This document shows, in pieces, positions 2,504-28,417 of a stretch of 30,239 nucleotides of DNA (the first letter of the stretch is position 1; each line of letters begins with the position of its first letter). Source of the DNA: a virus (Duplodnaviria; Caudoviricetes); IMG/VR virus record IMGVR_UViG_3300032253_000231, positions 1-30,239 of that record; one strand, written 5' to 3'. Below the pieces are notes generated by a model. The model ran no database searches. It saw nothing but the letters and a program-made list of their open reading frames with translations, and was not told where the DNA came from. The translations under genes were made by a program, and so were the position numbers.

Positions 2504-3067
2504 CTATACAGGCGTTGGCCAGGTCAGATTACTTGCGGCCGTCAATGCATCAGCCGCCGTTGTGGCGGCGTCGATGGCTTCTTTCGCGCCTTCACGGATA
2601 TCCTCAATGGCGGCCGCAACCACCATCCACGTGTCGGCTTGTGTTTTCCATTCGGTGGCCACGGCCGCATAATCAGGTATTGTTGGATTGAGCCGTTCAG
2701 CCCGCGCCTTGATCAACGGATAATCGCTGGCCACCGGTGATGTGGCCGCCAGCCAGTTTTCGGCTTCGGCCCGTTTTCGTTCATAAATCAACGCCTGTCC
2801 GGAACCGCCGGTGATAAATTTCAACCGGGTATTTTCGGCTTCGGAATCGACCCGGTTTTTAAGCAATGTTTGCGTATCGGTGAGCGGGATGGTTTCCGGC
2901 GCTGGCGCTGTAAAGGACGTGCCGTCCCATGTCGCGCCGATCACGGCCGTGCCGTCATCAGGCACCAGCGTGGCGACGATTTCCGGTGTGAACATTTCAT
3001 TAATATCGCCGCCCTGATCGTCGATCAGCTCAACAACAATATTTTTTTCAATTCTTGCATGGATCAT
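2504..3067 (-). CDS. Tail fibre-associated/assembly protein
   Basis: Directly follows the tail fibre. The pattern 'V..IGATWDGTSFTAP … GQALIYERKRAEA … IEDIREGAK' is typical of post-fibre proteins. Confidence 0.7.
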   Translation of the reverse strand: MIHARIEKNIVVELIDDQGGDINEMFTPEIVATLVPDDGTAVIGATWDGTSFTAPAPETIPLTDTQTLLKNRVDSEAENTRLKFITGGSGQALIYERKRAEAENWLAATSPVASDYPLIKARAERLNPTIPDYAAVATEWKTQADTWMVVAAAIEDIREGAKEAIDAATTAADALTAASNLTWPTPV

Positions 3068-4302
3068 TATTTATACTCCTCGATGATTACAAAACCGGGG
3101 CCGCCTGTACCACCGGCACCGGCCACAGCGGTACCGCCCGCGCCCATGGCACCACCGCCACCACCGCCACCATTAACGCCGTCCTGCCCGGCAGTTCCGG
3201 CGAGCCACGCACCGGGGCCACCGCCTTCGCCGCCACCATTGCCGCCCTGATTTGAATTTGTTGTAACTTCACGAAGACCTTGCGTGCCAACCGCACCGCG
3301 CAGATTAATATCGCCGGATGATCCAAGGCCGCCTGTGCCGCCCCAGCCATCATCGCCGCCACCGGACCGGTAACCACCGCCACCGCCGGTCGCGGACAAA
3401 TACGCGCCGAACGACGTTGTCCCGCCGGTGCCACCATTGGTCATGCCCGCGCCGCCGCCATCTGACGGATTTCCCGGTGTGCCGCCAAGCCCGACCGTCA
3501 CCGCAACGGAAGATATTCCAAGGGCTATGATATCGAGCAGCTTTTCAGCACGGCCACCTTGACCGCCACCACCACCAACGTAATAATCGGCGTAGCCACC
3601 GCCACCACCGCCACCACCGCCACAAAGGCGAACGCGGATTTTTGTTGTCCCGGCATCCGGCGTCCAGGTACCGGAAGCCGTGAATACCTTGACAGCTTGC
3701 AGCACGCCACCGGCATCGGACTCGGCATCAATATCAACAAACATGATGTCGGCCGCTTTGGCGATGCCGATGCGGACCTTGTCGGTGGGAGCCGTTAAAT
3801 TAAGTGCACCGGCCGTGGTGCCATCCAGATAATAACGTGATCCCGGCGTCAGTCCCGACATCAGACCGGCGCGGGTTTCCCCGAAACAAATGACTTCACT
3901 GTTCGTTACATCGGCCACACCCACCGCATTGTTGCTGGTGGTACCGTCGGCAATGGCTTGGGCAAAATTGCTGTTGACGCTATCCCAACGGACGACTTCA
4001 CCATCGGCGACACCGGCGGCAAAGGTCGCCGATTTGATAACGACGGCTTTCGACGCGCCGCTGATCATGGCCGTGATGGCTTGACGCAGTTGTGTGCGGT
4101 CGGATTTATCAAGGGTCAGACCGCTGCTGGTAATCGTGCCTGCGATTTCTTCTTGCACCATATTCAGCCATTCGGCGTTGACCACCGTGGCCGGGATGGC
4201 GTTCGCCGCATCACCATCGGTAAAAAACCCGTTTGGATTGGGCCCGGCGGCCGTCGGTGCCGGGAGCGTGCCTGTGGCGGTTCCGTTATCAATCTTGAAC
4301 AT
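3067..4302 (-). CDS. Tail fibre protein with glycine-rich C-terminal domain
   Basis: Mu-type fibre N-terminus (GFFTDG…ATVVNAEWLNMVQEEI…LDKSDRTQL) directly after gp48. 'FTASGTWTP…GGGGGGG' Gly-rich domain. Confidence 0.85.
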   Translation of the reverse strand: MFKIDNGTATGTLPAPTAAGPNPNGFFTDGDAANAIPATVVNAEWLNMVQEEIAGTITSSGLTLDKSDRTQLRQAITAMISGASKAVVIKSATFAAGVADGEVVRWDSVNSNFAQAIADGTTSNNAVGVADVTNSEVICFGETRAGLMSGLTPGSRYYLDGTTAGALNLTAPTDKVRIGIAKAADIMFVDIDAESDAGGVLQAVKVFTASGTWTPDAGTTKIRVRLCGGGGGGGGGYADYYVGGGGGQGGRAEKLLDIIALGISSVAVTVGLGGTPGNPSDGGGAGMTNGGTGGTTSFGAYLSATGGGGGYRSGGGDDGWGGTGGLGSSGDINLRGAVGTQGLREVTTNSNQGGNGGGEGGGPGAWLAGTAGQDGVNGGGGGGGAMGAGGTAVAGAGGTGGPGFVIIEEYK

Positions 4303-4901: not shown

Positions 4902-5960
4902 TCAGCTCCATGTGATCGCGCCGAAGACGGCGATCTCTCCTGTCAAATGGGTGACGTCGGCGACCGGGCTGGTCAGTTGATGATCGTTTTCACCGGCGGC
5001 GATAGAAATGGCCTCACGAATATGGCTGATCAGGATGGTGCCGCCGGGGACTGCTTCGCGCCGGATCAGGTCTTTGATCTCGGCCTCGATGGCGTCTTTG
5101 ACGGCCTGCGATACCGGATCAAGCCCGGAAATGGTCAGGTTTAAAATCTTCGGTACCGGGGCGACAACGGTTAATGCGGCCGTCACCGGCCGCACCAGAT
5201 CAAGGGCCGTTTGCACGGCCGTCACATCGGCCGCCAGCGGAATGCCATCGGCATAGGTATCGGCCATTAAAAACCGCACGCTGACGGTGCCGAGGCCCAG
5301 TTCCTGCGGATAGACCCATGCGTCTGTGACACCGGCCTGATCTTTGGCCCATTTGACGTAATCAAAATCCGCGCCACCGTGGGGCGGTTGCTGAATACGG
5401 TCGAGAATACGGGCGCGAAAATCGTCGTCGGTTTCTTCGTCCGCGCCGCCGGTTAAGCCTGCGGCCGCCACAGTCGGCCCAGCGTTTACGCCGACAATGG
5501 GTGAAACCAGGTTAACCGTGGTCCCGGAAACCCCGTTGCCGTCCAATCCGGCCAATACGGCGGTGACGGTGGCGGTGGCCACACCGGCGGTGATGATCAC
5601 TTCGACAGTAGTTTGGTATTGGCGGCCATCGGCGCGTTGCAACAACGTGTCTTTTGGAATTACGGTGTTATCAATGCCCGTAAAATCAACCGATCCTGTG
5701 GCAAAGGTTGCCGCCAAGCGCGCCACATTCCAGACCGCACCGTGGCGATCGAGCATTTCCGTTTCGGCGGTATCAACCAGCATCTGTTCCTTGGCCCAGT
5801 CGATAAAACCATAGACACCGTGATTGGCCCCGGCCGATGTGGTGGCCAGAACGTTCAGGTTTGATCTGCGCAGGCGGGCGTCGGCACCGGGCAAGCGGGC
5901 CTCGATGTCGGCGATGGCGGCGTCATTCAGATTGGTTAAGGTCGGTTTTTCAAAGGGCAT
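4902..5960 (-). CDS. Baseplate J / Mu gp47 protein
   Basis: GGADEETDDDFRAR, PPHGG..DY..WA and GTVSV motifs; synteny. Confidence 0.94.
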   Translation of the reverse strand: MPFEKPTLTNLNDAAIADIEARLPGADARLRRSNLNVLATTSAGANHGVYGFIDWAKEQMLVDTAETEMLDRHGAVWNVARLAATFATGSVDFTGIDNTVIPKDTLLQRADGRQYQTTVEVIITAGVATATVTAVLAGLDGNGVSGTTVNLVSPIVGVNAGPTVAAAGLTGGADEETDDDFRARILDRIQQPPHGGADFDYVKWAKDQAGVTDAWVYPQELGLGTVSVRFLMADTYADGIPLAADVTAVQTALDLVRPVTAALTVVAPVPKILNLTISGLDPVSQAVKDAIEAEIKDLIRREAVPGGTILISHIREAISIAAGENDHQLTSPVADVTHLTGEIAVFGAITWS

Positions 5961-14200: not shown

Positions 14201-14776
14201 TTATTGCTCCGGTTTGATTAAATCTTCGGCGTCGTTTTCAGCCGCAGGAAGAGGTGCGATAACGTTGCCCAGTGGCGGCAAGTCCCAGTCGCTGTGCAGG
14301 GTGACGAAGTTGTCGAGTGTGGTTTCATCAAGGGTCAGTTCCGTTACGTATGAAGTCTCGATCTCAATGGCGTAGATCGACAGATTTTTTTCATTGTGGA
14401 TTTGCACCACGCGACCGGGTTTGACCTCGCCAACATCGCTGAGACCAAGACCAAAAAGTAAAACGCGCCTCATATCTTCAACCATTTGATAGGTGCCGAC
14501 ATCCCCTGCGGCTCCCCGGCGCGCGGCTTTTTCATTGCGGCGATTTCGGGTTGCGCAAATTATCGAAAAACGGGGAACATGCCGCCACGCCGAACTGGCA
14601 ATTTGCTCCGGTTTGGCTTCGCCTGAAAAAGTCACGAAAACCGCCGGTGTGCGTTTGACGATCTCACTGGCTTTGGCTTCCAGTTCGCCGCCGTAGGATT
14701 TAACATCTTTCAAGGTGTAACCGAGCGCTGCGTCCTTCAGCTTATCAACTATGGCCTGTTCAATAGTCCCGATCAT
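14201..14776 (-). CDS. Mu gp37-like tail completion protein (DUF1834)
   Basis: IE.AI…L…V.SYGGE…PAV.V…R.G…G.YQ motifs; synteny. Confidence 0.85.
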   Translation of the reverse strand: MIGTIEQAIVDKLKDAALGYTLKDVKSYGGELEAKASEIVKRTPAVFVTFSGEAKPEQIASSAWRHVPRFSIICATRNRRNEKAARRGAAGDVGTYQMVEDMRRVLLFGLGLSDVGEVKPGRVVQIHNEKNLSIYAIEIETSYVTELTLDETTLDNFVTLHSDWDLPPLGNVIAPLPAAENDAEDLIKPEQ

Positions 14777-15240
14777 TGTTTAAACGCTCCGGCCAGATAA
14801 TCTTGAACGCTGGCTTCTATTTCCCGTTCGTCGTCGCTGTCAATTCCCAGAAACGGACGCGCCGGAATGGTGGCTGCAAGATTTCGACCGGCTTGTCCGC
14901 CTTCCTGGTGGATGCGCGCATAAACCATGTTGGAGCCGACTTCGACCTGATCACTGGACGCATTGTGGGTTATTGACCCGCTGAGATAGTCATCCAAGGT
15001 CAGAATTTTTGCTTTGCCATCGCGAGCGCGACGACGTTTGGCGTAAGCTGTTGACCACGGTTTCCATTTTTTCCCGTCCGGGCCCCGCTCGGCTTCAAAC
15101 CGATCCTGTGTTGATGTAACGAGACTGGCCCCGATATGATCAAGCAAAGGCTCCAGATTTTGCCCACGCTGTTCAAGACCGGCAAACACGCGGCGAATGA
15201 TTTTATCATCAACTTTAATGCTGAGACCGATGCCCGCCAT
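14773..15240 (-). CDS. Phage virion morphogenesis protein (Mu gpG-like)
   Basis: RF..E.GPDG..W, L..SI, VGSN..YA.IHQ.GG and IPARPFLG motifs. Confidence 0.92.
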   Translation of the reverse strand: MAGIGLSIKVDDKIIRRVFAGLEQRGQNLEPLLDHIGASLVTSTQDRFEAERGPDGKKWKPWSTAYAKRRRARDGKAKILTLDDYLSGSITHNASSDQVEVGSNMVYARIHQEGGQAGRNLAATIPARPFLGIDSDDEREIEASVQDYLAGAFKQ

Positions 15241-16985: not shown

Positions 16986-17363
16986 TTAACCCTGGATACG
17001 ACCAGGCTGGATGAGAATGCTGCCGATATCACCGGCAACAGCGGAAACCATGGCGCGGCCGATAACGACCTCGTTAACACCGGCAGCGGGAGCTGCAGCA
17101 ATCGCTTTGCCGCTGGCATCCGAGGTCACGAAGTCGCCCTGTGTAACGACACCGCCGAATTCAACATCCCTGATGCCGTCAAGATAAACATCAACACGGT
17201 CACCGATTGCGGCTGCACCACGCGGCCCAGTGACGCCCAGCAACAAATCCGTGTTGGCGGCCGCTTCAGCAACTTCGCCTTCGGTGGCTGTGAATTTGAC
17301 GATCCGTCGTGGCAGGATCGCCGCACTGGCCGTCATATTTTTAATTAAACCAAACTCGTTCAT
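16986..17363 (-). CDS. Capsid decoration/cement protein (DUF2190-like)
   Basis: Ala/Gly/Val-rich, 125 aa, between protease and capsid; G..VTSDA.GKA…IG.A…A.AGD. Confidence 0.8.
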   Translation of the reverse strand: MNEFGLIKNMTASAAILPRRIVKFTATEGEVAEAAANTDLLLGVTGPRGAAAIGDRVDVYLDGIRDVEFGGVVTQGDFVTSDASGKAIAAAPAAGVNEVVIGRAMVSAVAGDIGSILIQPGRIQG

Positions 17364-17839
17364 TGGTCCGTTCCTTTCATAACGTGATCAACCGCATCGG
17401 ACGTCGAAACCGTGACGCCCTTGGTACGCATTTCTTCCTGGTAGGCCACCGCATCTCGAGCGGTTTCAGTGGCGCTGGCATTTTCAACTGCAGGAATATC
17501 GCCGCCCGAGCGTTCTGAAAAATCGACCCGGTTTGGCAAAGAGCCCAAAAAGTCGACCAGAAACGCTTTTTGCGTTTTTTCATCGCCCTCACCAAAAGAC
17601 ACGGTCTCCTGGTCATCAAGCTTGGCCATGAATTGAGCCAATGGCTTTTTTTCGGCAGGCAGGACCTGTCCGGATTTAACCAGACCATCGAGGACTTCAT
17701 TGGCCTTGGCGGTGCGTTCACGTTCGGCAAATTTTGCTTCACGATCTTTTAAGGTTTGCTCGCGCCGGTCCAGTTCTGCGGTATCCGGTTGAGCAGGTTC
17801 GGCGGCAACAGCCACCGGCGTTTTTGGCGACGGGTTCAT
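17360..17839 (-). CDS. Putative internally initiated scaffold (Mu gpZ equivalent)
   Basis: In-frame ATG at 17839 (MNPSPK…) preceded by AAGGAACCGACG; the coiled-coil C-terminal half follows. Confidence 0.6.
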   Translation of the reverse strand: MNPSPKTPVAVAAEPAQPDTAELDRREQTLKDREAKFAERERTAKANEVLDGLVKSGQVLPAEKKPLAQFMAKLDDQETVSFGEGDEKTQKAFLVDFLGSLPNRVDFSERSGGDIPAVENASATETARDAVAYQEEMRTKGVTVSTSDAVDHVMKGTDQ

Positions 17840-18538
17840 CGTCGGTTCCTTTTCAGTTGTGGTTAAAGAGAGAGGGGCTTCGTTAAAACTCCTGGCGCTG
17901 TCAGGCTGTGGCGCGCTGATAATTTGGGCGGCTTCTTCGGCACCGGTTTCCAGATCAAACTTTTCGATGACTTTGTTGGCTTTTTCAGAGCCGTATTCTT
18001 CGATTAGAAATTCACGCAGAGAGCCAAGAATTCGATAGACACGTTTGAGCGACCAGCCTGTCTCCGATTCAGGGGCGGCAAAATCGACGGTCATGGTTAT
18101 GGCATCGTCGTCATCTGCGAACTCAACCGGTTTCAAGCCCTTGACAGCGGGCGGCTGGGCTCCGAGAAACCCAACGTGTCTGAGGGCGAACACTTCCGGC
18201 GTCGGATTGTTGGATGCACCGGGCTTGTAAAAGCTGGCTGAAACTTTTTTAAACCGACCGGCGGAAACCATTTCAGCAAATTCCGGATCGACCTGGTGCG
18301 GGATGGCCGTCAACGCGTTTTCTGAAAATTCCAGCTCTTTTACCCAGCCGTATGCCGGGGCATTGGCTTTGGGATGGCCGATCACCAGCGGCGCTTCATG
18401 GGCTGACGGATCGTAGGCGGCAGCCGTTTCTGCCAGATCACTTTCCGAAAACGAGATATCCGCACCAGACATATCACGGTGATGCCCCGTGCGAAAAATC
18501 TCGATAGGTTGGCTTTCGTCACCAGCCTTTTTGTTCAT
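17360..18538 (-). CDS. Prohead protease/scaffold, Mu gpI-like
   Basis: IEIFR.G.H, HEAPLVIGHP, PAYGWV, G.FKK.SASFY and LRHVGFLGAQPPAVKGL motifs. Confidence 0.93.
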   Translation of the reverse strand: MNKKAGDESQPIEIFRTGHHRDMSGADISFSESDLAETAAAYDPSAHEAPLVIGHPKANAPAYGWVKELEFSENALTAIPHQVDPEFAEMVSAGRFKKVSASFYKPGASNNPTPEVFALRHVGFLGAQPPAVKGLKPVEFADDDDAITMTVDFAAPESETGWSLKRVYRILGSLREFLIEEYGSEKANKVIEKFDLETGAEEAAQIISAPQPDSARSFNEAPLSLTTTEKEPTMNPSPKTPVAVAAEPAQPDTAELDRREQTLKDREAKFAERERTAKANEVLDGLVKSGQVLPAEKKPLAQFMAKLDDQETVSFGEGDEKTQKAFLVDFLGSLPNRVDFSERSGGDIPAVENASATETARDAVAYQEEMRTKGVTVSTSDAVDHVMKGTDQ

Positions 18539-18627
18539 GGGTTATCTCCTGAAAGACGCCGAAAGTTAAAAAGCGGTCAAACCGCTGTTTCGAGAGACAT
18601 CATTTCAGGTTGGGTGCCATCAAATAA

Positions 18628-18646
18628 GGGCGCAACGTTTGCGCCC
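18628..18646. promoter_or_regulatory. Dyad GGGCGCAA-N3-TTGCGCCC, putative Mor/C activator site of the head-operon promoter
   Basis: Perfect 8-bp inverted repeat upstream of the protease gene; identical arms at 26412-26430. Confidence 0.75.
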
Positions 18647-18854
18647 CTGAAGAAATCCAGCTACATGGAAAATCCGTTTGTGGTTAGTCAGACATAACTC
18701 AAAAAATCGCGCGCGTCTATAATGACAATTTAAACCGGTTTTAATATCAAAATTAAACGGGGGTTAAACGGGGCAGGAAAGCCGCAATGGGATTTTGGCG
18801 GCCCAAGTCCCTGACCGGGGCTTGATGGCCCCCTATGGGCAATTTTTTGGAGCC

Positions 18855-18883
18855 TCGACTTTTTAGATAAGCAATCGTATAAT
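18855..18883 (+). promoter_or_regulatory. sigma70 promoter pointing at the 3' end of muF
   Basis: TCGACT (18855-18860), 17 bp spacer, TATAAT (18878-18883). Confidence 0.65.
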
Positions 18884-18888
18884 GTATG

Positions 18889-18967
18889 GGCAGATGTTGA
18901 CGGGTCCGCATACCTTTCGTCAGCATTGGGCTCCACGGTCGATGCGGAGGCTTGATGGAACTTTTTT
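18889..18967 (+). ncRNA. Candidate H-type pseudoknot small RNA
   Basis: S1 is AUGUUGACG (18894-18902) pairing with CGUCAGCAU (18918-18926). S2 is loop UCCGCAU (18905-18911) pairing with AUGCGGA (18942-18948). It starts just after the promoter and ends at a U-run (18962-18967). Confidence 0.55.
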
Positions 18968-20183
18968 ATTCTTTCTTATATATCCTCAAGCCATTTCTTA
19001 TATTCTTCAGCTTGTCTGATTTTCCGGGAAAAAAAGTCAGTCCTGACCATATCCCTCCATCAAGATCTGCCACCAGAGAAACGGTCCTGTTCTTCCCGAT
19101 CTGCAATAATTTAGCGTATCTTCGCCGTATTAAAACCCGGCCGGATATGCTGCTTTCGGCAAAACCTGCCCATATTTCTTCAGGATCTTCGATTAACTCA
19201 GGAATGAACGGGAAAAAAGCTTCCCGGCCATCCATGCGTTTCGTGTTTTCAATCAGATGATCAACAATGCCTTGGCCCACCTGAATACGTGCACCTAACG
19301 GATCCACGAGAACAGCATCATCCGCACCAAGCGATTTGTTCATTAATTTTTTAAGAGTTTCCGGGTCTTTTGTCCGTTCTCCAATGGAAGCTTTCGGTGT
19401 GAAAACCGTTAAGTTACCCGGGTCTTGCGGCCGGTTTCCACCGGGCGCACTCAGGGCTTGCCATGGACCATGACGTTCCTGCGCGACCTTGCTTGCACCA
19501 CGTCCCCATGCCGCATCGCCAACGTTGTAGGCAAACCCGGTATCAATGCCCTTCGGTACTTCTAGGCTGACTTTTCCTTCCGGCGTGTTAACCTGACGGG
19601 TCTCTTTTTCAATGCGCGGCGGCGGGTCCGTCACCGCTTTACCGCGCCGCTTCAAATCGCGTGCCGAGAAGGGTTGTACCTTGCAACGACAGTTCCAGCC
19701 GTTTGGCGGGGCATGTGTTCGCCAGAACGGATCATCAACCGGCAGGATGGTGTCATGCCATGCGCGGTGTTCAGGACGGGTGCGACCATCCATGACGGCT
19801 ACATAGCGCACATAGGGTTTGGTTTTCTTTAGGCGTTGGATTTGTGCCCAACGTCCGGCGTTTGTGGCCATGCGCATGTTGGTACCGTAAATCACACGGG
19901 ATCGCCAACCGCGCGACCCTTTATAGGACCAACCGTGTTTGGCAACGATGCGGTCAAAGTCTTTGCGAAAATCAGCCAAGGTCCGTCCCTCGGCGATGGC
20001 TTTGTTGACGGCTTCGTGAAAATCAGCAATCAGCGCGGCCTTGACCGCACCGGAAACAACAAAGGCACGGGCATGCATGCCTTGAAACAGGTCTGTCCAG
20101 GTCCGGGTCGGCAGATCGACTTTGTTTGTGAGAAAAGAAATTGCTTCTGCAAACGGTACCCCGCCTGTGGCAACATCAGCCAT
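18966..20183 (-). CDS. Minor head protein MuF (gp30) with C-terminal PBECR2-like (Barnase/EndoU/Colicin/RelE fold) nuclease domain
   Basis: MuF core (AF.V.G, D.RTRPEH..W, DDPFW..H.PPNGWNCRC). The C-terminal extension DH…DGRE.F…I…I.DPEEIW…RRRY…GLTFF…R.G..IY resembles PBECR2. Confidence 0.88.
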   Translation of the reverse strand: MADVATGGVPFAEAISFLTNKVDLPTRTWTDLFQGMHARAFVVSGAVKAALIADFHEAVNKAIAEGRTLADFRKDFDRIVAKHGWSYKGSRGWRSRVIYGTNMRMATNAGRWAQIQRLKKTKPYVRYVAVMDGRTRPEHRAWHDTILPVDDPFWRTHAPPNGWNCRCKVQPFSARDLKRRGKAVTDPPPRIEKETRQVNTPEGKVSLEVPKGIDTGFAYNVGDAAWGRGASKVAQERHGPWQALSAPGGNRPQDPGNLTVFTPKASIGERTKDPETLKKLMNKSLGADDAVLVDPLGARIQVGQGIVDHLIENTKRMDGREAFFPFIPELIEDPEEIWAGFAESSISGRVLIRRRYAKLLQIGKNRTVSLVADLDGGIWSGLTFFPGKSDKLKNIRNGLRIYKKE

Positions 20184-21627
20184 CGATAATCTCCGACTGG
20201 CCTGTCAGTTCGGCAACGCTCAGGGCTTGGCCCATAACATCAGCCAGACTGCTATCGTCAATGTCCGGGTAAAGCTCTATCAGTTTATCAGCAACGTCCT
20301 GCAGGCTGTCGGCGCTATCGATCAGGCTTCTGATCTGATTGATCATAACGTCCATGGCCGGTGCGGCGACGGTATCCAGTTGACCGGTTAAATCGTCAGC
20401 CGCATCCTTGGCAATATGTTCGGCAAATGATAGCGGCTTATTGGTGGGTTGACCCATAGCGGTCGCAACCACACCCTCATATCCGGGGCCATAGGTTTCC
20501 GCGATTCGCTCAGCCGTTGGCTTGTAACCGATATTGAAAAGCCGCTCATCCCGTTCGGCAAGCTGGTTCAAATCTTCCGGGTCATCGGTAACACGCCAGA
20601 CTCTTGGCGTTGCCGCATTCGGAAAATTCCACGCCGTCAACCACGTGACCGGGCCTTTGTTAAAACTCTCGCACACCAGATCGGCATCACTTTCAACAAC
20701 ATCATTACGCACATCCATGTGAACCTGTGCCTGGCTAAGGCTTGAGCCACTTTCTGTGGTCATGGTTTGTGATAAAATGACTTTGGCAATCATTAAATCC
20801 ATGTACTGAGCGAATTTTTCATGGTCGCCACCGGCACGACGCGTCGCTTCCATAAATTCAATTTCCATGCCTTGCGGAATGATGATGCCGACATCTGTGG
20901 CAACCGCGCGGATAGCCGATAATAATTTTTTCTTTTCTTCTTCAGTGGCGGATGCGTCATAGTGACCGATTGTCGTGGGCTGACCGAACTTTTCCAGTAC
21001 AATCGCCCACGATTTAATGCCGTTGCGTTTGAAAAACACCGGCCAGTAAAGCCAATAGGCCAACCCCAAACCATAGACATCATCATCGTTGTCGGCACCG
21101 GCGGTGAAGGTCCAGAATTTTCGGTCCGGCATAATCATTCCCGTGGGCTTGTCTTTTGTCAAAAGACGAAGCGACCCGTCCCGGCCAAACCGGAACCGTT
21201 TTCGGTTACGCACCTTGACATCAGCCAGTTGGACACGCGAGGCATCAATTTCCCACATACATTCGGCCACCGCGTATCCGTAAAACAGGCCCCACAACAT
21301 GCGTTCGGTGATCCGGTCCCAGGACAAATTACTGATCTGCTCTTTCAGATCATCGGCGGCCTGTTGATCGATGGCGGCATCTCCGCCGGGTTCGACGTTC
21401 CAGTCGCGACTGGTGACGGCCCGTCTGCGTTGCTGAAAAGTCGTATGCACTTGCTCGTCGCGGCGAATGTTTTCGTAAATGGCAAGATCGCCGCCTTTCG
21501 AACGCAATTTTGGATCGGTCGGTTGTGCCAGTTCGCCGGTATAGAAATCGTAAGCATCCGCACTGCTTGCACCAGCACCGGCGATTTCGCGGGTTTCAGG
21601 TTTTGATTTTTCAGGTTTTTTTGCCAT
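20176..21627 (-). CDS. Portal protein, Mu gp29 (DUF935)
   Basis: YGYAV.E..W, YGLGL…YWP..FK, EKFG.P, QTMTT and A.VH..VR motifs. Confidence 0.95.
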   Translation of the reverse strand: MAKKPEKSKPETREIAGAGASSADAYDFYTGELAQPTDPKLRSKGGDLAIYENIRRDEQVHTTFQQRRRAVTSRDWNVEPGGDAAIDQQAADDLKEQISNLSWDRITERMLWGLFYGYAVAECMWEIDASRVQLADVKVRNRKRFRFGRDGSLRLLTKDKPTGMIMPDRKFWTFTAGADNDDDVYGLGLAYWLYWPVFFKRNGIKSWAIVLEKFGQPTTIGHYDASATEEEKKKLLSAIRAVATDVGIIIPQGMEIEFMEATRRAGGDHEKFAQYMDLMIAKVILSQTMTTESGSSLSQAQVHMDVRNDVVESDADLVCESFNKGPVTWLTAWNFPNAATPRVWRVTDDPEDLNQLAERDERLFNIGYKPTAERIAETYGPGYEGVVATAMGQPTNKPLSFAEHIAKDAADDLTGQLDTVAAPAMDVMINQIRSLIDSADSLQDVADKLIELYPDIDDSSLADVMGQALSVAELTGQSEIIDG

Positions 21628-24543: not shown

Positions 24544-24745
24544 TTGTCTCTCTTTCATTTTCGCAATGTGTGCATCTCATTGCCGTTGGAACGGCCATCA
24601 GACGTGCTTCGCCAATGGATTCACCACAACTGGTGCACATGCCATTGCCTTCACTGGTCGTATGCCTGTGAACTTTTAAAGCGGCCAAGGCGTTTTGTCG
24701 GTGCAGTTCTTCAACAGCTTGAGCCCGGTCAGCATCATCTGACAT
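24530..24745 (-). CDS. TraR/DksA C4 zinc-finger protein
   Basis: MSDDADRAQ (DxxDxA) with CTSCGE.I…R..A.P…RC.HC. Confidence 0.92.
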   Translation of the reverse strand: MSDDADRAQAVEELHRQNALAALKVHRHTTSEGNGMCTSCGESIGEARLMAVPTAMRCTHCENERETNELG

Positions 24746-25499
24746 CGTTGTTCTCCGCACGTTCCAATACCCGGCCGTAGTTGGCAATTTTGTGGTCCAG
24801 ATACATTCGTTCGGGAACCGGGCAGAGCGTCCAACCCGATTTCCATTTCAGGGAAAACACGGAAAGAAACCGTCCGAACAATTCCTGCCATAATGGACAG
24901 TCCCGAATAGCCTCACCGTTCGTTGTCAAATAAACGGGTCTGCCGTCATGCCTGAAACCCATCGCCATTAACGGCACCGCAGGCACAATGTCTGCGCCAT
25001 AAACATATCGGGTGTGAAGGATTTGTTCGTCCTTAAACACCTGTTTAATCGCCTTTGAACCAACGCGCGGCGCACCGAATGTAACCACACGCTGGCACCA
25101 TGGCCATGACAGCCCGGCTATTACCGCCAAGGCACCACCGAGTGAATGACCTGTGAAAATCAAACGACTATCGCCATTTTCGCCAATCATCTTTCTGAGT
25201 TTGGGACGGATCGCGCCCCACTGCGCCCGAAAACCCCGATGTACCCGAATCTTGCCAGAAGGGATTAGGTCGACCCGGCGGAATTTCAAATCAGCCATAA
25301 TATCAGCATAATTTTTTTCCGTGCCGCGAAAAGCCACAACGGTTTCATTTTCATTTGAACAAACGATCAGGTCGGCTCCGGTTGTCTTGTCATGGATCGC
25401 CCCTTCAAACCGATAACCCAAACGGGCAACGGATCGCTTGGCATCGGCATCAGGCAAATAGGCGGCGGCACTCAGTTGTTGGTAAATCAAATCCGACAC
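24735..25499 (-). CDS. Class-3 lipase (alpha/beta hydrolase)
   Basis: VVAFRGT, VHRGF, TGHSLGG (Ser), TFGAPRVG, DIVP.VP (Asp), DH.I..Y (His); GTG start at 25499 with GAGG RBS. Confidence 0.92.
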   Translation of the reverse strand: MSDLIYQQLSAAAYLPDADAKRSVARLGYRFEGAIHDKTTGADLIVCSNENETVVAFRGTEKNYADIMADLKFRRVDLIPSGKIRVHRGFRAQWGAIRPKLRKMIGENGDSRLIFTGHSLGGALAVIAGLSWPWCQRVVTFGAPRVGSKAIKQVFKDEQILHTRYVYGADIVPAVPLMAMGFRHDGRPVYLTTNGEAIRDCPLWQELFGRFLSVFSLKWKSGWTLCPVPERMYLDHKIANYGRVLERAENNDVR

Positions 25500-25506
25500 A
25501 ATAACC

Positions 25507-25881
25507 TCAAGGCACGACGGCTTTAACGATGGCACCCATCACGCTGTCAACGATACCGGGCGCGGCCGCTTTTAAATCATCGGAAATTGCATCTTCAACT
25601 GCTCCCCGGATTTTCTGACCTTCAAAGGCCCGGACACCGTTTGCAGAATATTCAACTTGCCAGCCAACGGGATTTTTTATCACCAAAGAAACATTTTGCT
25701 TTTCCTTGCCGTCAATGATTTCGGCGGCGCAAACAAAAACACCGCCGTCTTTTTTCTGGCAAACCTTGACGGTCGCATGGGTGATCCCGGCGTTGACTTG
25801 TTCATTTCCGGGAATGGCACCGCAGGCAGCCAGAAATAAAATCAATGCGAGCGGCGCGGATAATGATAATAGGCGTTTCAT
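25507..25881 (-). CDS. Lipoprotein in the lysis cassette
   Basis: RBS AGGAG; signal peptide with lipobox LAAC; directly after the endolysin. Confidence 0.85.
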   Translation of the reverse strand: MKRLLSLSAPLALILFLAACGAIPGNEQVNAGITHATVKVCQKKDGGVFVCAAEIIDGKEKQNVSLVIKNPVGWQVEYSANGVRAFEGQKIRGAVEDAISDDLKAAAPGIVDSVMGAIVKAVVP

Positions 25882-27275: not shown

Positions 27276-27993
27276 TTTTTTTCCTTTCAATAGTGGCTTT
27301 TCTGATTTTCTGACCCAAGGCCTCGATAACCAGGTCAGCGTCGTGATCATCCAAGTGCAAATAAGGAATAATGCCAGGGCTTTTCACGAACCGGCCGACC
27401 CAGCTGGATAGCGCGCCGTGATCGCGGATTTTTACGACACCGAGGTCATGGAGTTTTTCCCATTGCGCTTCCATCACCCGGCAACGCGGCTTGTAAAATG
27501 GGCCGTTCGTCGAGGCGTAAGCGCGCCAATTAACGCCGCCGTCGCGAGTTGCCCAGGATTTCAGAGCCTCGATAACCTTGAATGCTTTTTCCGGGATCAG
27601 GAACCTAAGGTCATCGACCCCGGCCTGCCGTTTGACAAAAGCGGCCAAGGCTTTTTCCGACGAGTCTGTGATAATGCCAAGATGATAAAGTGTAATCCAA
27701 AGCGCACGGATTTTCCGCTGCGTCTTACCGCTCGCCATCGGTCGCGATCCGGCCCGTGCCGGGGCTTTGCGTTTGGGCTTGAATCCTAGCGTTTTAAAAT
27801 GCTCAACCAGATCGACCAGCTGACGGTTGCCAAGCTGTTTGCGAGATCGTTTGCCATATCTGACTTCCAGCAAATCCCGGTATGTATCGTCATCCATGCC
27901 GATTGATTTTTTGGCGATCTCAATCTTGCCGTACAAAGACCGGCGATAAGGATCCGTCGGTTTTTTATGAACCTGTTTTTTAACCGTTGCCAT
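27256..27993 (-). CDS. gemA: GemA-like regulatory protein (DUF1018)
   Basis: KI.IAK…DD.YR..L, GFK, KIRALW..L, AL.AFVKR and VIEALK.W motifs; ATG at 27993. Confidence 0.9.
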   Translation of the reverse strand: MATVKKQVHKKPTDPYRRSLYGKIEIAKKSIGMDDDTYRDLLEVRYGKRSRKQLGNRQLVDLVEHFKTLGFKPKRKAPARAGSRPMASGKTQRKIRALWITLYHLGIITDSSEKALAAFVKRQAGVDDLRFLIPEKAFKVIEALKSWATRDGGVNWRAYASTNGPFYKPRCRVMEAQWEKLHDLGVVKIRDHGALSSWVGRFVKSPGIIPYLHLDDHDADLVIEALGQKIRKATIERKKNAQRDD

Positions 27994-28417
27994 TGCACCA
28001 TCCTTTTCTTTTTCCGCCTTTGTAAACTCTGGCAAAACCACCATCGATCATGGCTTGTGCCACATCAATGCCGTCAGCCGTTTCCACACGGGCAATGACG
28101 CGACCAGCAAATTTTCCCGGCCAAACGTTTAAAAGACGGGCCTGATCGCCCAACATTTTTGTGAGTGCTTTTTTGGCGTCTTGTGCACGCCGTTTTTCCG
28201 ATGCGCATTTACCTTTGATTTCCGGTGTATCAAACCCGTCCATGCGAATAGACCGACGTAGCAAGATGCCCGGCCAGATTTCAAACAAGGCGACAAAGGT
28301 GTCGCCATCGATGACGCGAACAACTTCGGCCACGATTGGGCCCGGAACCGTTTTATTGATTTTTGCCATGACTGGTGTGGTCATCAATAAAATGGCGATA
28401 AGCAAAAATTTAATCAT
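27980..28417 (-). CDS. Secreted thermonuclease (SNase-like)
   Basis: Signal peptide; VVRVIDGDT, IR..G.DTPE, GK..GR, G.AR.Y.GG.R..WC motifs. Confidence 0.9.
   Translation of the reverse strand: MIKFLLIAILLMTTPVMAKINKTVPGPIVAEVVRVIDGDTFVALFEIWPGILLRRSIRMDGFDTPEIKGKCASEKRRAQDAKKALTKMLGDQARLLNVWPGKFAGRVIARVETADGIDVAQAMIDGGFARVYKGGKRKGWCNGNG

Follow-up and report, generated by a model that had tools for sequence, protein, structure and literature searches.

We analysed a stretch of viral DNA of 30,239 nucleotides (nt) from a member of Caudoviricetes (positions 1 to 30,239 of IMG/VR record IMGVR_UViG_3300032253_000231; hereafter the window). In this stretch muF, the gene of a gpF-like minor head protein that ends in a PBECR2 domain (a predicted RNase), is faced at its stop codon by a sigma70-type promoter and a predicted non-coding RNA (ncRNA) of about 72 nt on the opposite strand. 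Judged from comparison of related sequences, this RNA is probably a trans-acting antitoxin, an immunity RNA that replaces protein immunity for a predicted polymorphic nuclease of the virion. A preliminary description of the locus, made from the letters of the window alone, had proposed a promoter-driven structured RNA partnered with PBECR2 in place of an immunity protein, and this proposal is strongly supported by conservation, covariation, the promoter, cassette exchange and the absence of such an RNA after short MuFs.

A covarying RNA family with kissing hairpins

A 15-protein alignment of the PBECR2 domain was used as query and gave 71 viral, 35 genome and 30 metagenome loci, to which five phage records were added. 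Four loci were left out because their contigs stop within the gene or shortly past it, and 108 non-duplicate loci remained, one of them identical to the window; these and the loci of the further searches are designated L with a number. With a sequence-only profile, a similar stretch was found in 58 loci, nearly all against the muF stop codon and on the opposite strand. The window RNA and 52 of the others went into an alignment made from sequence only, whose 53 RNAs are 56% identical on average and fall into about 45 clusters at 80%. When mutual information with average product correction was calculated without any structure input, the top ten pairs all fell inside three helices.

The family fold consists of hairpin A, a GGGC linker and hairpin B, and the loop of hairpin B pairs with that of hairpin A over 6 bp. 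Hairpin A has a 10-bp stem, a 3-nt bulge, a 3-bp helix of GGG/CCC type and a 6-nt loop. Double-sided changes were detected in 27 of 27 pairs, and 87.5% of the alignment cells are paired, compared with 73.9% in shuffles (0 of 500 as good) and 34–44% in slid controls, all counts that ignore phylogeny. The outer helices of hairpin A are paired in 86.8–88.7% of cells. G-U cells are far more frequent than A-C cells (134 vs 27), which marks the + strand as the folded strand, as the preliminary description had argued. The two loops may kiss inside a single molecule or join two molecules, and covariation fits both alike.

The preliminary description had drawn a clean H-type pseudoknot of two stems, S1 and S2. 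Stem S1 (18894–18902/18918–18926) and the 6-bp core of S2, which is the loop-loop helix, are both retained and covary, but the seventh S2 pair is not (14/51). The ACC/GGU extension of S2 also failed, being 62.9% paired, with pair 39–76 formed in 5 of 53 RNAs and no double-sided change at 40–75 or 41–74. The topology itself had to be redrawn as two hairpins with a loop-loop kiss, since hairpin B and the inner helix of hairpin A had been missed.

A TAnnnT element at the promoter distance seen in the window was found in 58 of 74 family copies, compared with 7 of 74 control windows. The transcription start, earlier placed near 18889, is likely 18890, the G of a GCAG conserved in 52 of the 53 aligned RNAs. 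The terminal U-run is a different case: it exists in the window, but a 3' run of at least four U occurs in only 2 of 75 family copies, and there is no conserved terminator.

The element in the window

The covariance model built from the aligned RNAs (R1; its E-values are rough) matches the window at 18881–18967 with 59.1 bits, the window itself being in the seed. A kissing structure as good as that of the window was obtained in 0 of 100 shuffles, and the site ranks first for a sequence-free descriptor across all 30 kb on both strands. The plain minimum free energy is unremarkable (z -1.6), a single-sequence scan of the locus found nothing, and the promoter motif alone is near chance (5 sites in the window vs a shuffled mean of 3.2). 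The U-rich tail is a possible terminator, in the window phage only.

No Rfam family matched the window stretch up to E 10, apart from two chance rows, and at the gathering threshold none was found at the RNA slot in sets of 20, 16 and 10 related loci. Of seven runs none was listed as an RNA holder, and three DNA runs showed no variant. HDV (hepatitis delta virus)-like ribozymes are nested double pseudoknots with P3, P1.1 and a catalytic C. Such a ribozyme was considered on account of the first G-U pair and the GGG after the stem, and was rejected with no Rfam match to E 10 and no P3 or P1.1 by covariation. A 15-nt likeness of the RNA 5' end to muF mRNA was treated as chance. No description of the kissing RNA was found in the literature covered, although most subscription papers and supplementary motif lists lie outside this coverage and could contain it; the accessible part of bioRxiv 2026.09.22.753630 does not mention BECR.

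Occurrence beside PBECR2 genes

Model R1 reaches at least 25 bits at 69 of the 108 non-duplicate PBECR2 loci (52 seeds, one copy of the window and 16 others). Another 16 loci score 14–25 bits at the same place, and 23 have no R1 match. Among the R1-silent loci, constrained folding or visual inspection showed a kissing fold in L001, L004, L037, L058, L063, L066, L068, L070, L108 and L139, weaker in L037 and L068 than in the others, and L111 is a spurious protein match. No RNA was found in the stretch examined at L003, L005, L039, L051, L065, L102 and L140. A pattern scan blind to protein returned nine contigs, eight with the RNA adjoining muF-PBECR2 and one ending just after the RNA, and in five whole genomes all matches (7 of 7) are at muF-PBECR2 loci. 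A strict descriptor matched 39 of 105 antisense stretches, compared with 2 of 105 sense stretches and 8 of 299 coding controls.

In a sample of 401 genomes of the wider phylum, 31 have PF18810 (PBECR2). R1 gave a good match at only 4 of 30 PBECR2 loci there, and across 151 genomes of the wider class it found the centre genome only, indicating that the model is subfamily-specific. In 20 of the 27 phylum loci with enough flank, the kissing fold is beaten by at most 1 of 15 shuffles, and the strict descriptor matched 7 of 27 vs 1 of 81 controls. The GGG-loop-CCC-GAU core is kept in several of these loci, including solo PBECR2 genes without the MuF N-terminus (L226, L227, L228 and L244), where it lies inside an extra closing stem; at L226, L228 and L244 the kissing fold passes the shuffle test. 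Complementary loops of differing sequence also occur in the cultured phages Riverbug, MMP7, Lsp-JY19, RR1-B, RcapMu, RcWaterboi and YO374_1.

Co-exchange with the PBECR2 tail

The PBECR2 tail and the RNA are exchanged between phages as one cassette. For example, between RcapMu and RcWaterboi the DNA of the muF N-terminal part is 96–100% identical and the promoter and G gene 84–96%, compared with only 45–67% for the tail and the RNA. In L024/L026 the identities are 0.99 (N-terminal part), 0.69 (tail), 0.75 (RNA) and 0.97 (flank), and six pairs of the tRNA-like class described below behave alike. In a set of 64 pairs, which are not independent, similarity in the RNA slot correlates with that of the tail (rho 0.71) more closely than with that of the N-terminal part (0.25). 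Partial Mantel tests (n=49) gave 0.32 (p 0.001) for RNA and PBECR2 vs 0.14 (p 0.08) for RNA and the MuF N-terminus; they agree for the MuF N-terminus and the portal, and the protease is less well separated (0.26 vs 0.21). Physical linkage could account for part of this Mantel signal.

The RNA type also varies with the tail type. In 44 loci collected with the MuF N-terminus as query, R1 was found at the stop codon only in L161, which has a PBECR2 tail (weak, 18 bits); L169 and L170, with PBECR2 tails, have related RNAs by eye. The core was found in 0 of 19 MuFs without PBECR2, and short MuFs and MuFs with His-less tails other than PBECR2 have no structured RNA among these loci. Where the tail is of another His-bearing kind, all 16 loci examined have this slot filled by a cloverleaf-like RNA that contains a T-loop-like motif and is accompanied by a convergent promoter (Table 1). 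These cloverleaves sit behind strong sigma70 promoters, two of them in tandem in L173 and L174, and none was called by ARAGORN (32 loci) or Rfam. Weak MuF_C matches were found in two of eight such tails scanned.

In L207, a second, partial PBECR2 coding stretch (1104–1472) lies downstream of the RNA and a full muF-PBECR2, like an orphan C-terminal cassette.

Copies away from the muF stop codon

The RNA is not bound to one position or strand. It lies on the sense strand in L017 and L032, is moved 118 to about 1100 nt from muF by cargo in L079, L010, L006 and L009, and is present in tandem in L036, L129 and L136. Across 151 genomes of one order, R1 gave 13 matches in 10 genomes: six by PBECR2 genes, one by a 40-amino-acid (aa) remnant, and six in four elements with no such domain nearby (L213–L216; Table 1). 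Each of these elements contains two RNA copies with promoter-like sites. They carry, in part, genes for a repressor, a transposase, a MuB-type ATPase, GemA and Mor, and capsid, protease or tape-measure genes; tblastn of the window proteins on the fetched stretches found no muF, portal or terminase. A PF18810 match is absent from three of the four genomes that hold them, genomes that are possibly incomplete. We infer from this gene content that the elements are Mu-like satellites, a case that is weaker for L215 because of its short contig. Taken by their arrangement, the sense, displaced, tandem and orphan copies are evidence that the RNA would act in trans.

In L218 (5542–5628 and about 5700–5790), a muF with a His-less PBECR2 precedes a structured stretch of its own type, after which comes a second, window-type RNA (84.5 bits) that resembles an orphan immunity copy. 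In several loci, cargo occupies the slot that separates muF from the next head gene. Named from sequence, this cargo presumably includes a RelA_SpoT protein (L145, 780–1643, on a contig shared with L009), a NACHT-domain protein (L039, 2952–5333) and transposon-like genes (L065, 2878–4472); L006 has in this slot a 185-aa open reading frame (ORF) of no known type (2890–3447).

The predicted nuclease

The C-terminal extension of MuF had been read as PBECR2-like in the preliminary description, and Pfam agrees (E 2.7e-19), with a profile score of 70 bits vs a curated cut-off of 27.1; its Atlas neighbours are PBECR2 as well. Up to E 0.05, Pfam found only Phage_Mu_F and PBECR2 on MuF, and no ToxN, CptN or TenpN family. 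His309 (19257–19259) is invariant in a 67-sequence domain alignment (A4), and Thr383 (19035–19037) is the commonest residue at its site, where others have Asp, Asn, Gly or Ser. Both fit the PBECR active site of His and a C-terminal Thr/Ser given in the part of Iyer et al. 2017 (PMC5512222) that is available.

An AlphaFold2 model of the domain (predicted local distance difference test score 84.8) has a helix and a meander sheet. A PDB sequence search gave no match, and the best Foldseek E-value is weak (0.08–0.1). The longest structural alignments among the top rows include two BECR toxins of contact-dependent growth inhibition (CDI), 6cp9_A (Z 4.5, 90 residues, root-mean-square deviation 4.0) and 7m5f_C (Z 4.0), which are weak as well; no MazF or ToxN is among the matches listed, all of them weak.

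A rule by which the RNA occurs only beside His-bearing domains was tried and failed, because His-less variants often keep the kissing RNA. Within the His-less subfamily, hairpin B also has the form of a terminator-like hairpin.

A candidate RNA immunity factor and its alternatives

The pattern matches a toxin-immunity cassette whose immunity slot is taken by an RNA. Host sigma70 would make the RNA in the lysogen and in early infection, independently of the late operon, and the RNA, once folded, would sit in the BECR active site in imitation of a substrate, probably tRNA, since sister MuF tails are paired with cloverleaf RNAs. It would render MuF harmless while expression is leaky and virions are being assembled, and would shield the lysogen against superinfecting phages that inject a toxin of the same type. 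Where a cell has no cognate RNA, host or rival RNA would be cut by the domain after injection. Additional divergent copies and satellite orphans would be the RNA counterpart of orphan immunity genes. We are evenly divided on a wider version, in which the virion MuF-BECR nucleases of Mu-like phages would be polymorphic toxins with ncRNA immunity (kissing RNAs for PBECR2, cloverleaves for the sister domains), exchanged as cassettes, accumulating as orphan arrays and acquired by Mu-like satellites as a means to resist the virion toxin of the helper or to make use of it.

Several observations weigh against an antitoxin. The His-bearing domains of L039, L051 and L065 are among those with no RNA in the stretch examined, and those of the R1-silent loci L067 and L071–L074 adjoin a different short structured RNA (two small hairpins and a terminator, about 0–75 nt past the stop codon on the opposite strand). 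The kissing RNA is found with His-less PBECR2 variants in L066, L108, L222, L223, L225, RR1-B, RcapMu and RcWaterboi, so that either other catalytic residues are used there or the partnership is independent of toxicity; His-free BECR nucleases do exist (colicin E5, RelE), and the His-less variants may therefore still be active. L162 and L164, with His-less tails, keep a convergent promoter-like site with no stable fold. The 15-shuffle test is also passed by other structured RNAs (L067, L072, L176) and hence unspecific, and in the fold search (best Z 4.8) the BECR-toxin matches (Z 3.7–4.5) are tied with unrelated folds. In L185/L189 the RNA (0.64) diverges more than the tail (0.81), an exception to the exchange pattern. 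Since linkage by itself would make the RNA resemble its nearest neighbour, the Mantel and pair correlations are no proof of co-evolution. Finally, the lack of a conserved terminator makes read-through antisense to muF possible.

The prohead RNA (pRNA) of phi29 is a small phage RNA with two complementary loops and a portal-associated function, which forms an intermolecular loop-loop oligomer on the prohead. The RNA described here could likewise be a structural or cargo partner, either in a PBECR2-bound ribonucleoprotein at the portal or packaged and injected as a pRNA-like oligomer, guide or decoy. Its two loops, being complementary to each other, might link separate molecules as those of pRNA do, His-less domains often keep it, its orphan copies adjoin capsid, protease and tape-measure genes in satellite-like elements, and the MuF protein gp7 of SPP1 is complexed with the portal (PMC5576092, in the part available). 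We regard this role as rather unlikely, because the promoter belongs to the host sigma70 type and in most loci points away from the late operon, the G gene lies right after muF with no RNA in L003, L005 and the cultured phage JBD25 (1 nt past muF in the latter), the RNA is retained beside PBECR2 genes that stand alone, with no MuF domain, and other tails have a cloverleaf fold instead. Compared with pRNA, the family has no Rfam match, was not found in some related phages, and varies in fold with the nuclease tail.

In most loci the RNA is convergent with muF and overlaps its stop codon, and with terminator-like U-runs in only 2 of 75 copies its promoter might read into muF and silence leaky toxin mRNA, as a type I-like cis-antisense RNA whose 5' structure is just a stabiliser. 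However, the overlap with muF is at the stop codon only, the sense-strand (L017, L032), cargo-separated and orphan copies lack it, tandem copies occur, and a stabiliser would have no use for the conserved GGG/CCC helix, the bulge and the kiss or for being exchanged along with the domain, which makes cis-antisense action distinctly unlikely.

Quite improbable, too, is a counter-defence decoy against nucleases of the host or of rival elements, which would lie near muF because the slot is a cargo hotspot. Orphan copies do occur in elements without PBECR2, the same slot takes cargo genes such as those for RelA_SpoT and NACHT proteins, and the pseudo-ToxI of phage PhiTE is reportedly a precedent; however, the RNA was not found after 19 MuFs without PBECR2, moves between phages along with the domain, is present after solo PBECR2 genes, and changes in type with the type of tail. 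A cis element (at the DNA level or as a terminator structure of the late transcript) or a small ORF, for which the terminator-like hairpin B of the His-less subfamily and a GGAG before the 57-aa sense ORF of the window could speak, is highly improbable in view of the G-U/A-C bias toward the + strand, the loop-loop covariation, the RNA's own promoter and the unconserved ORFs, with Shine-Dalgarno (SD)-led sense ORFs close to the stop codon in only 9 of 69 loci and of unlike lengths.

If the RNA is an antitoxin, RNA antitoxins would extend beyond the three families of type III toxin-antitoxin (TA) systems and their operon layout, and RNA immunity would exist in a widespread polymorphic toxin system of phage heads. 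MuF toxins without an immunity gene would be explained, uncharacterised PBECR nucleases would gain a testable partner and a hint of their substrate, and many naturally orthogonal nuclease/RNA pairs would be at hand. Even if this reading fails, the family is a compact, strongly covarying one that was not found in Rfam. Cultured phages that grow on laboratory hosts (RcapMu, RcWaterboi, Riverbug) carry it, which makes it testable at once.

Relation to known toxins

The preliminary description had called the pair type III-like. Type III TA systems (ToxIN, CptIN, TenpIN/AbiQ) similarly combine an endoribonuclease, here only predicted, with a small pseudoknotted ncRNA and no immunity protein, according to the available part of PMC5086642. 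The differences lie in the toxin family, the gene layout and the RNA fold. The type III toxin is a ToxN of MazF/Kid fold, whereas here a PBECR2 domain (predicted BECR fold) is fused to a head protein. The type III RNA is a tandem array upstream of the toxin, with a terminator between them in one operon under one promoter (PMC5086642, same part), whereas the window RNA is a single downstream copy with its own convergent promoter, as is usual in the family. The type III antitoxin is an H-type pseudoknot, compared with kissing hairpins here. The kissing RNA system would thus work like a type III TA without being a member by sequence, layout or RNA fold.

MuF polymorphic toxins, as far as the accessible text of Jamet et al. 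2017 (PMC5576092) describes them, join MuF to a variable C-terminal domain in the head module of temperate phages. The locus agrees with them in its C-terminal toxin-type domain and in the cassette exchange with the downstream element. A small immunity ORF downstream is typical in that account, whereas here an ncRNA occupies the slot and is exchanged with the domain. The PBECR clade of Iyer et al. 2017 (PMC5512222) is alike in PF18810, the MuF fusion and the His with C-terminal Thr/Ser; the available part of that account predicts RNase activity or RNA binding and mentions no linked RNA gene.

CdiA-CT of Kp342 (PDB 6CP9), a BECR-fold CDI tRNase, is the match with the longest structural alignment among the top rows, a weak one. 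In the part of PMC9086364 available, its Lys-Tyr-Thr together with His and Arg act on tRNA-Ile. It is neutralised by a protein, CdiI.

Gene order and other observations

The window has the gene order of Mu-like phages on the - strand: small terminase, portal, muF, a protease-like gene, capsid module and tail (Table 1). The gap between the muF stop codon and the protease-like gene is 427 nt. This gene has no Pfam protease match, and its name is taken from its position and the similar N-termini of annotated homologues. As the preliminary description had stated, no credible sense-strand immunity ORF follows muF: the 57-aa and 68-aa ORFs in the gap matched only the window's own copies among 254 loci, and were rejected as a protein immunity gene.

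Table 1. Coordinates of the features in the window and of RNA copies in other loci
Feature	Position	Strand	Remarks
Sigma70-type promoter	18855-18883	+	-35 TCGACT 18855-18860, 17-nt spacer, -10 TATAAT 18878-18883; 10/12 consensus match
Predicted kissing-hairpin ncRNA, about 72 nt	18890-18961	+	R1 match, covariation
Hairpin A	18893-18927	+	10-bp outer stem 18893-18902/18918-18927
Hairpin A inner helix, 3 bp	18903-18905/18912-18914	+	96.9% paired in family
Hairpin A loop, 6 nt	18906-18911	+	CCGCAU
Hairpin A bulge, 3 nt	18915-18917	+	UUU in window, GAU in 20/53
Hairpin B	18932-18959	+	constrained fold; helix B 82.5% paired in family
Hairpin B loop, partner of loop A in 6-bp kissing helix	18942-18947	+	AUGCGG; 94.6% paired in family
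U-rich tail, antisense overlap with muF stop codon	18962-18975	+	U-run at 18962-18967
muF, gpF-like minor head protein with C-terminal PBECR2	18966-20183	-	405 aa
Phage_Mu_F domain, muF aa 54-169	19677-20024	-	Pfam E 2.5e-25
PBECR2 predicted RNase domain, muF aa 285-403	18975-19331	-	Pfam E 2.7e-19
Mu-type portal gene, upstream of muF	20176-21627	-	Portal_Mu E 3.5e-108
Mu gpI-like head protease/scaffold gene, next sense gene	17360-18538	-	ORF; name inferred
Sense ORF in gap after muF	18753-18926		57 aa
Sense ORF in gap after muF	18730-18936		68 aa
G-type gene, away from muF	14773-15240
Cloverleaf RNAs in L172-L176, L178, L180-L182, L185, L186, L189, L190, L192, L193, L200	0-190 nt past muF stop	opposite to muF
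Orphan-copy element L213	G081:C1 ~1678000-1685200
Orphan-copy element L214	G101:C34 1-9200
Orphan-copy element L215	G023:C120
Orphan-copy element L216	G077:C77

Elsewhere on the - strand of the window, a class 3 lipase gene (24735–25535) adjoins a cell-wall hydrolase, and a staphylococcal-nuclease-like gene (27980–28417) precedes gemA. Upstream in the Mu-like head region of L172, an Rfam match to sRNA-Xcc1 was found (614–699, - strand, 73.5 bits). Short inverted and direct repeats (TTAAACnGG three times, GC hairpins) lie between the RNA promoter and the protease gene of the window at 18612–18646, 18727–18772 and 18800–18835, and this region is possibly a late promoter region.

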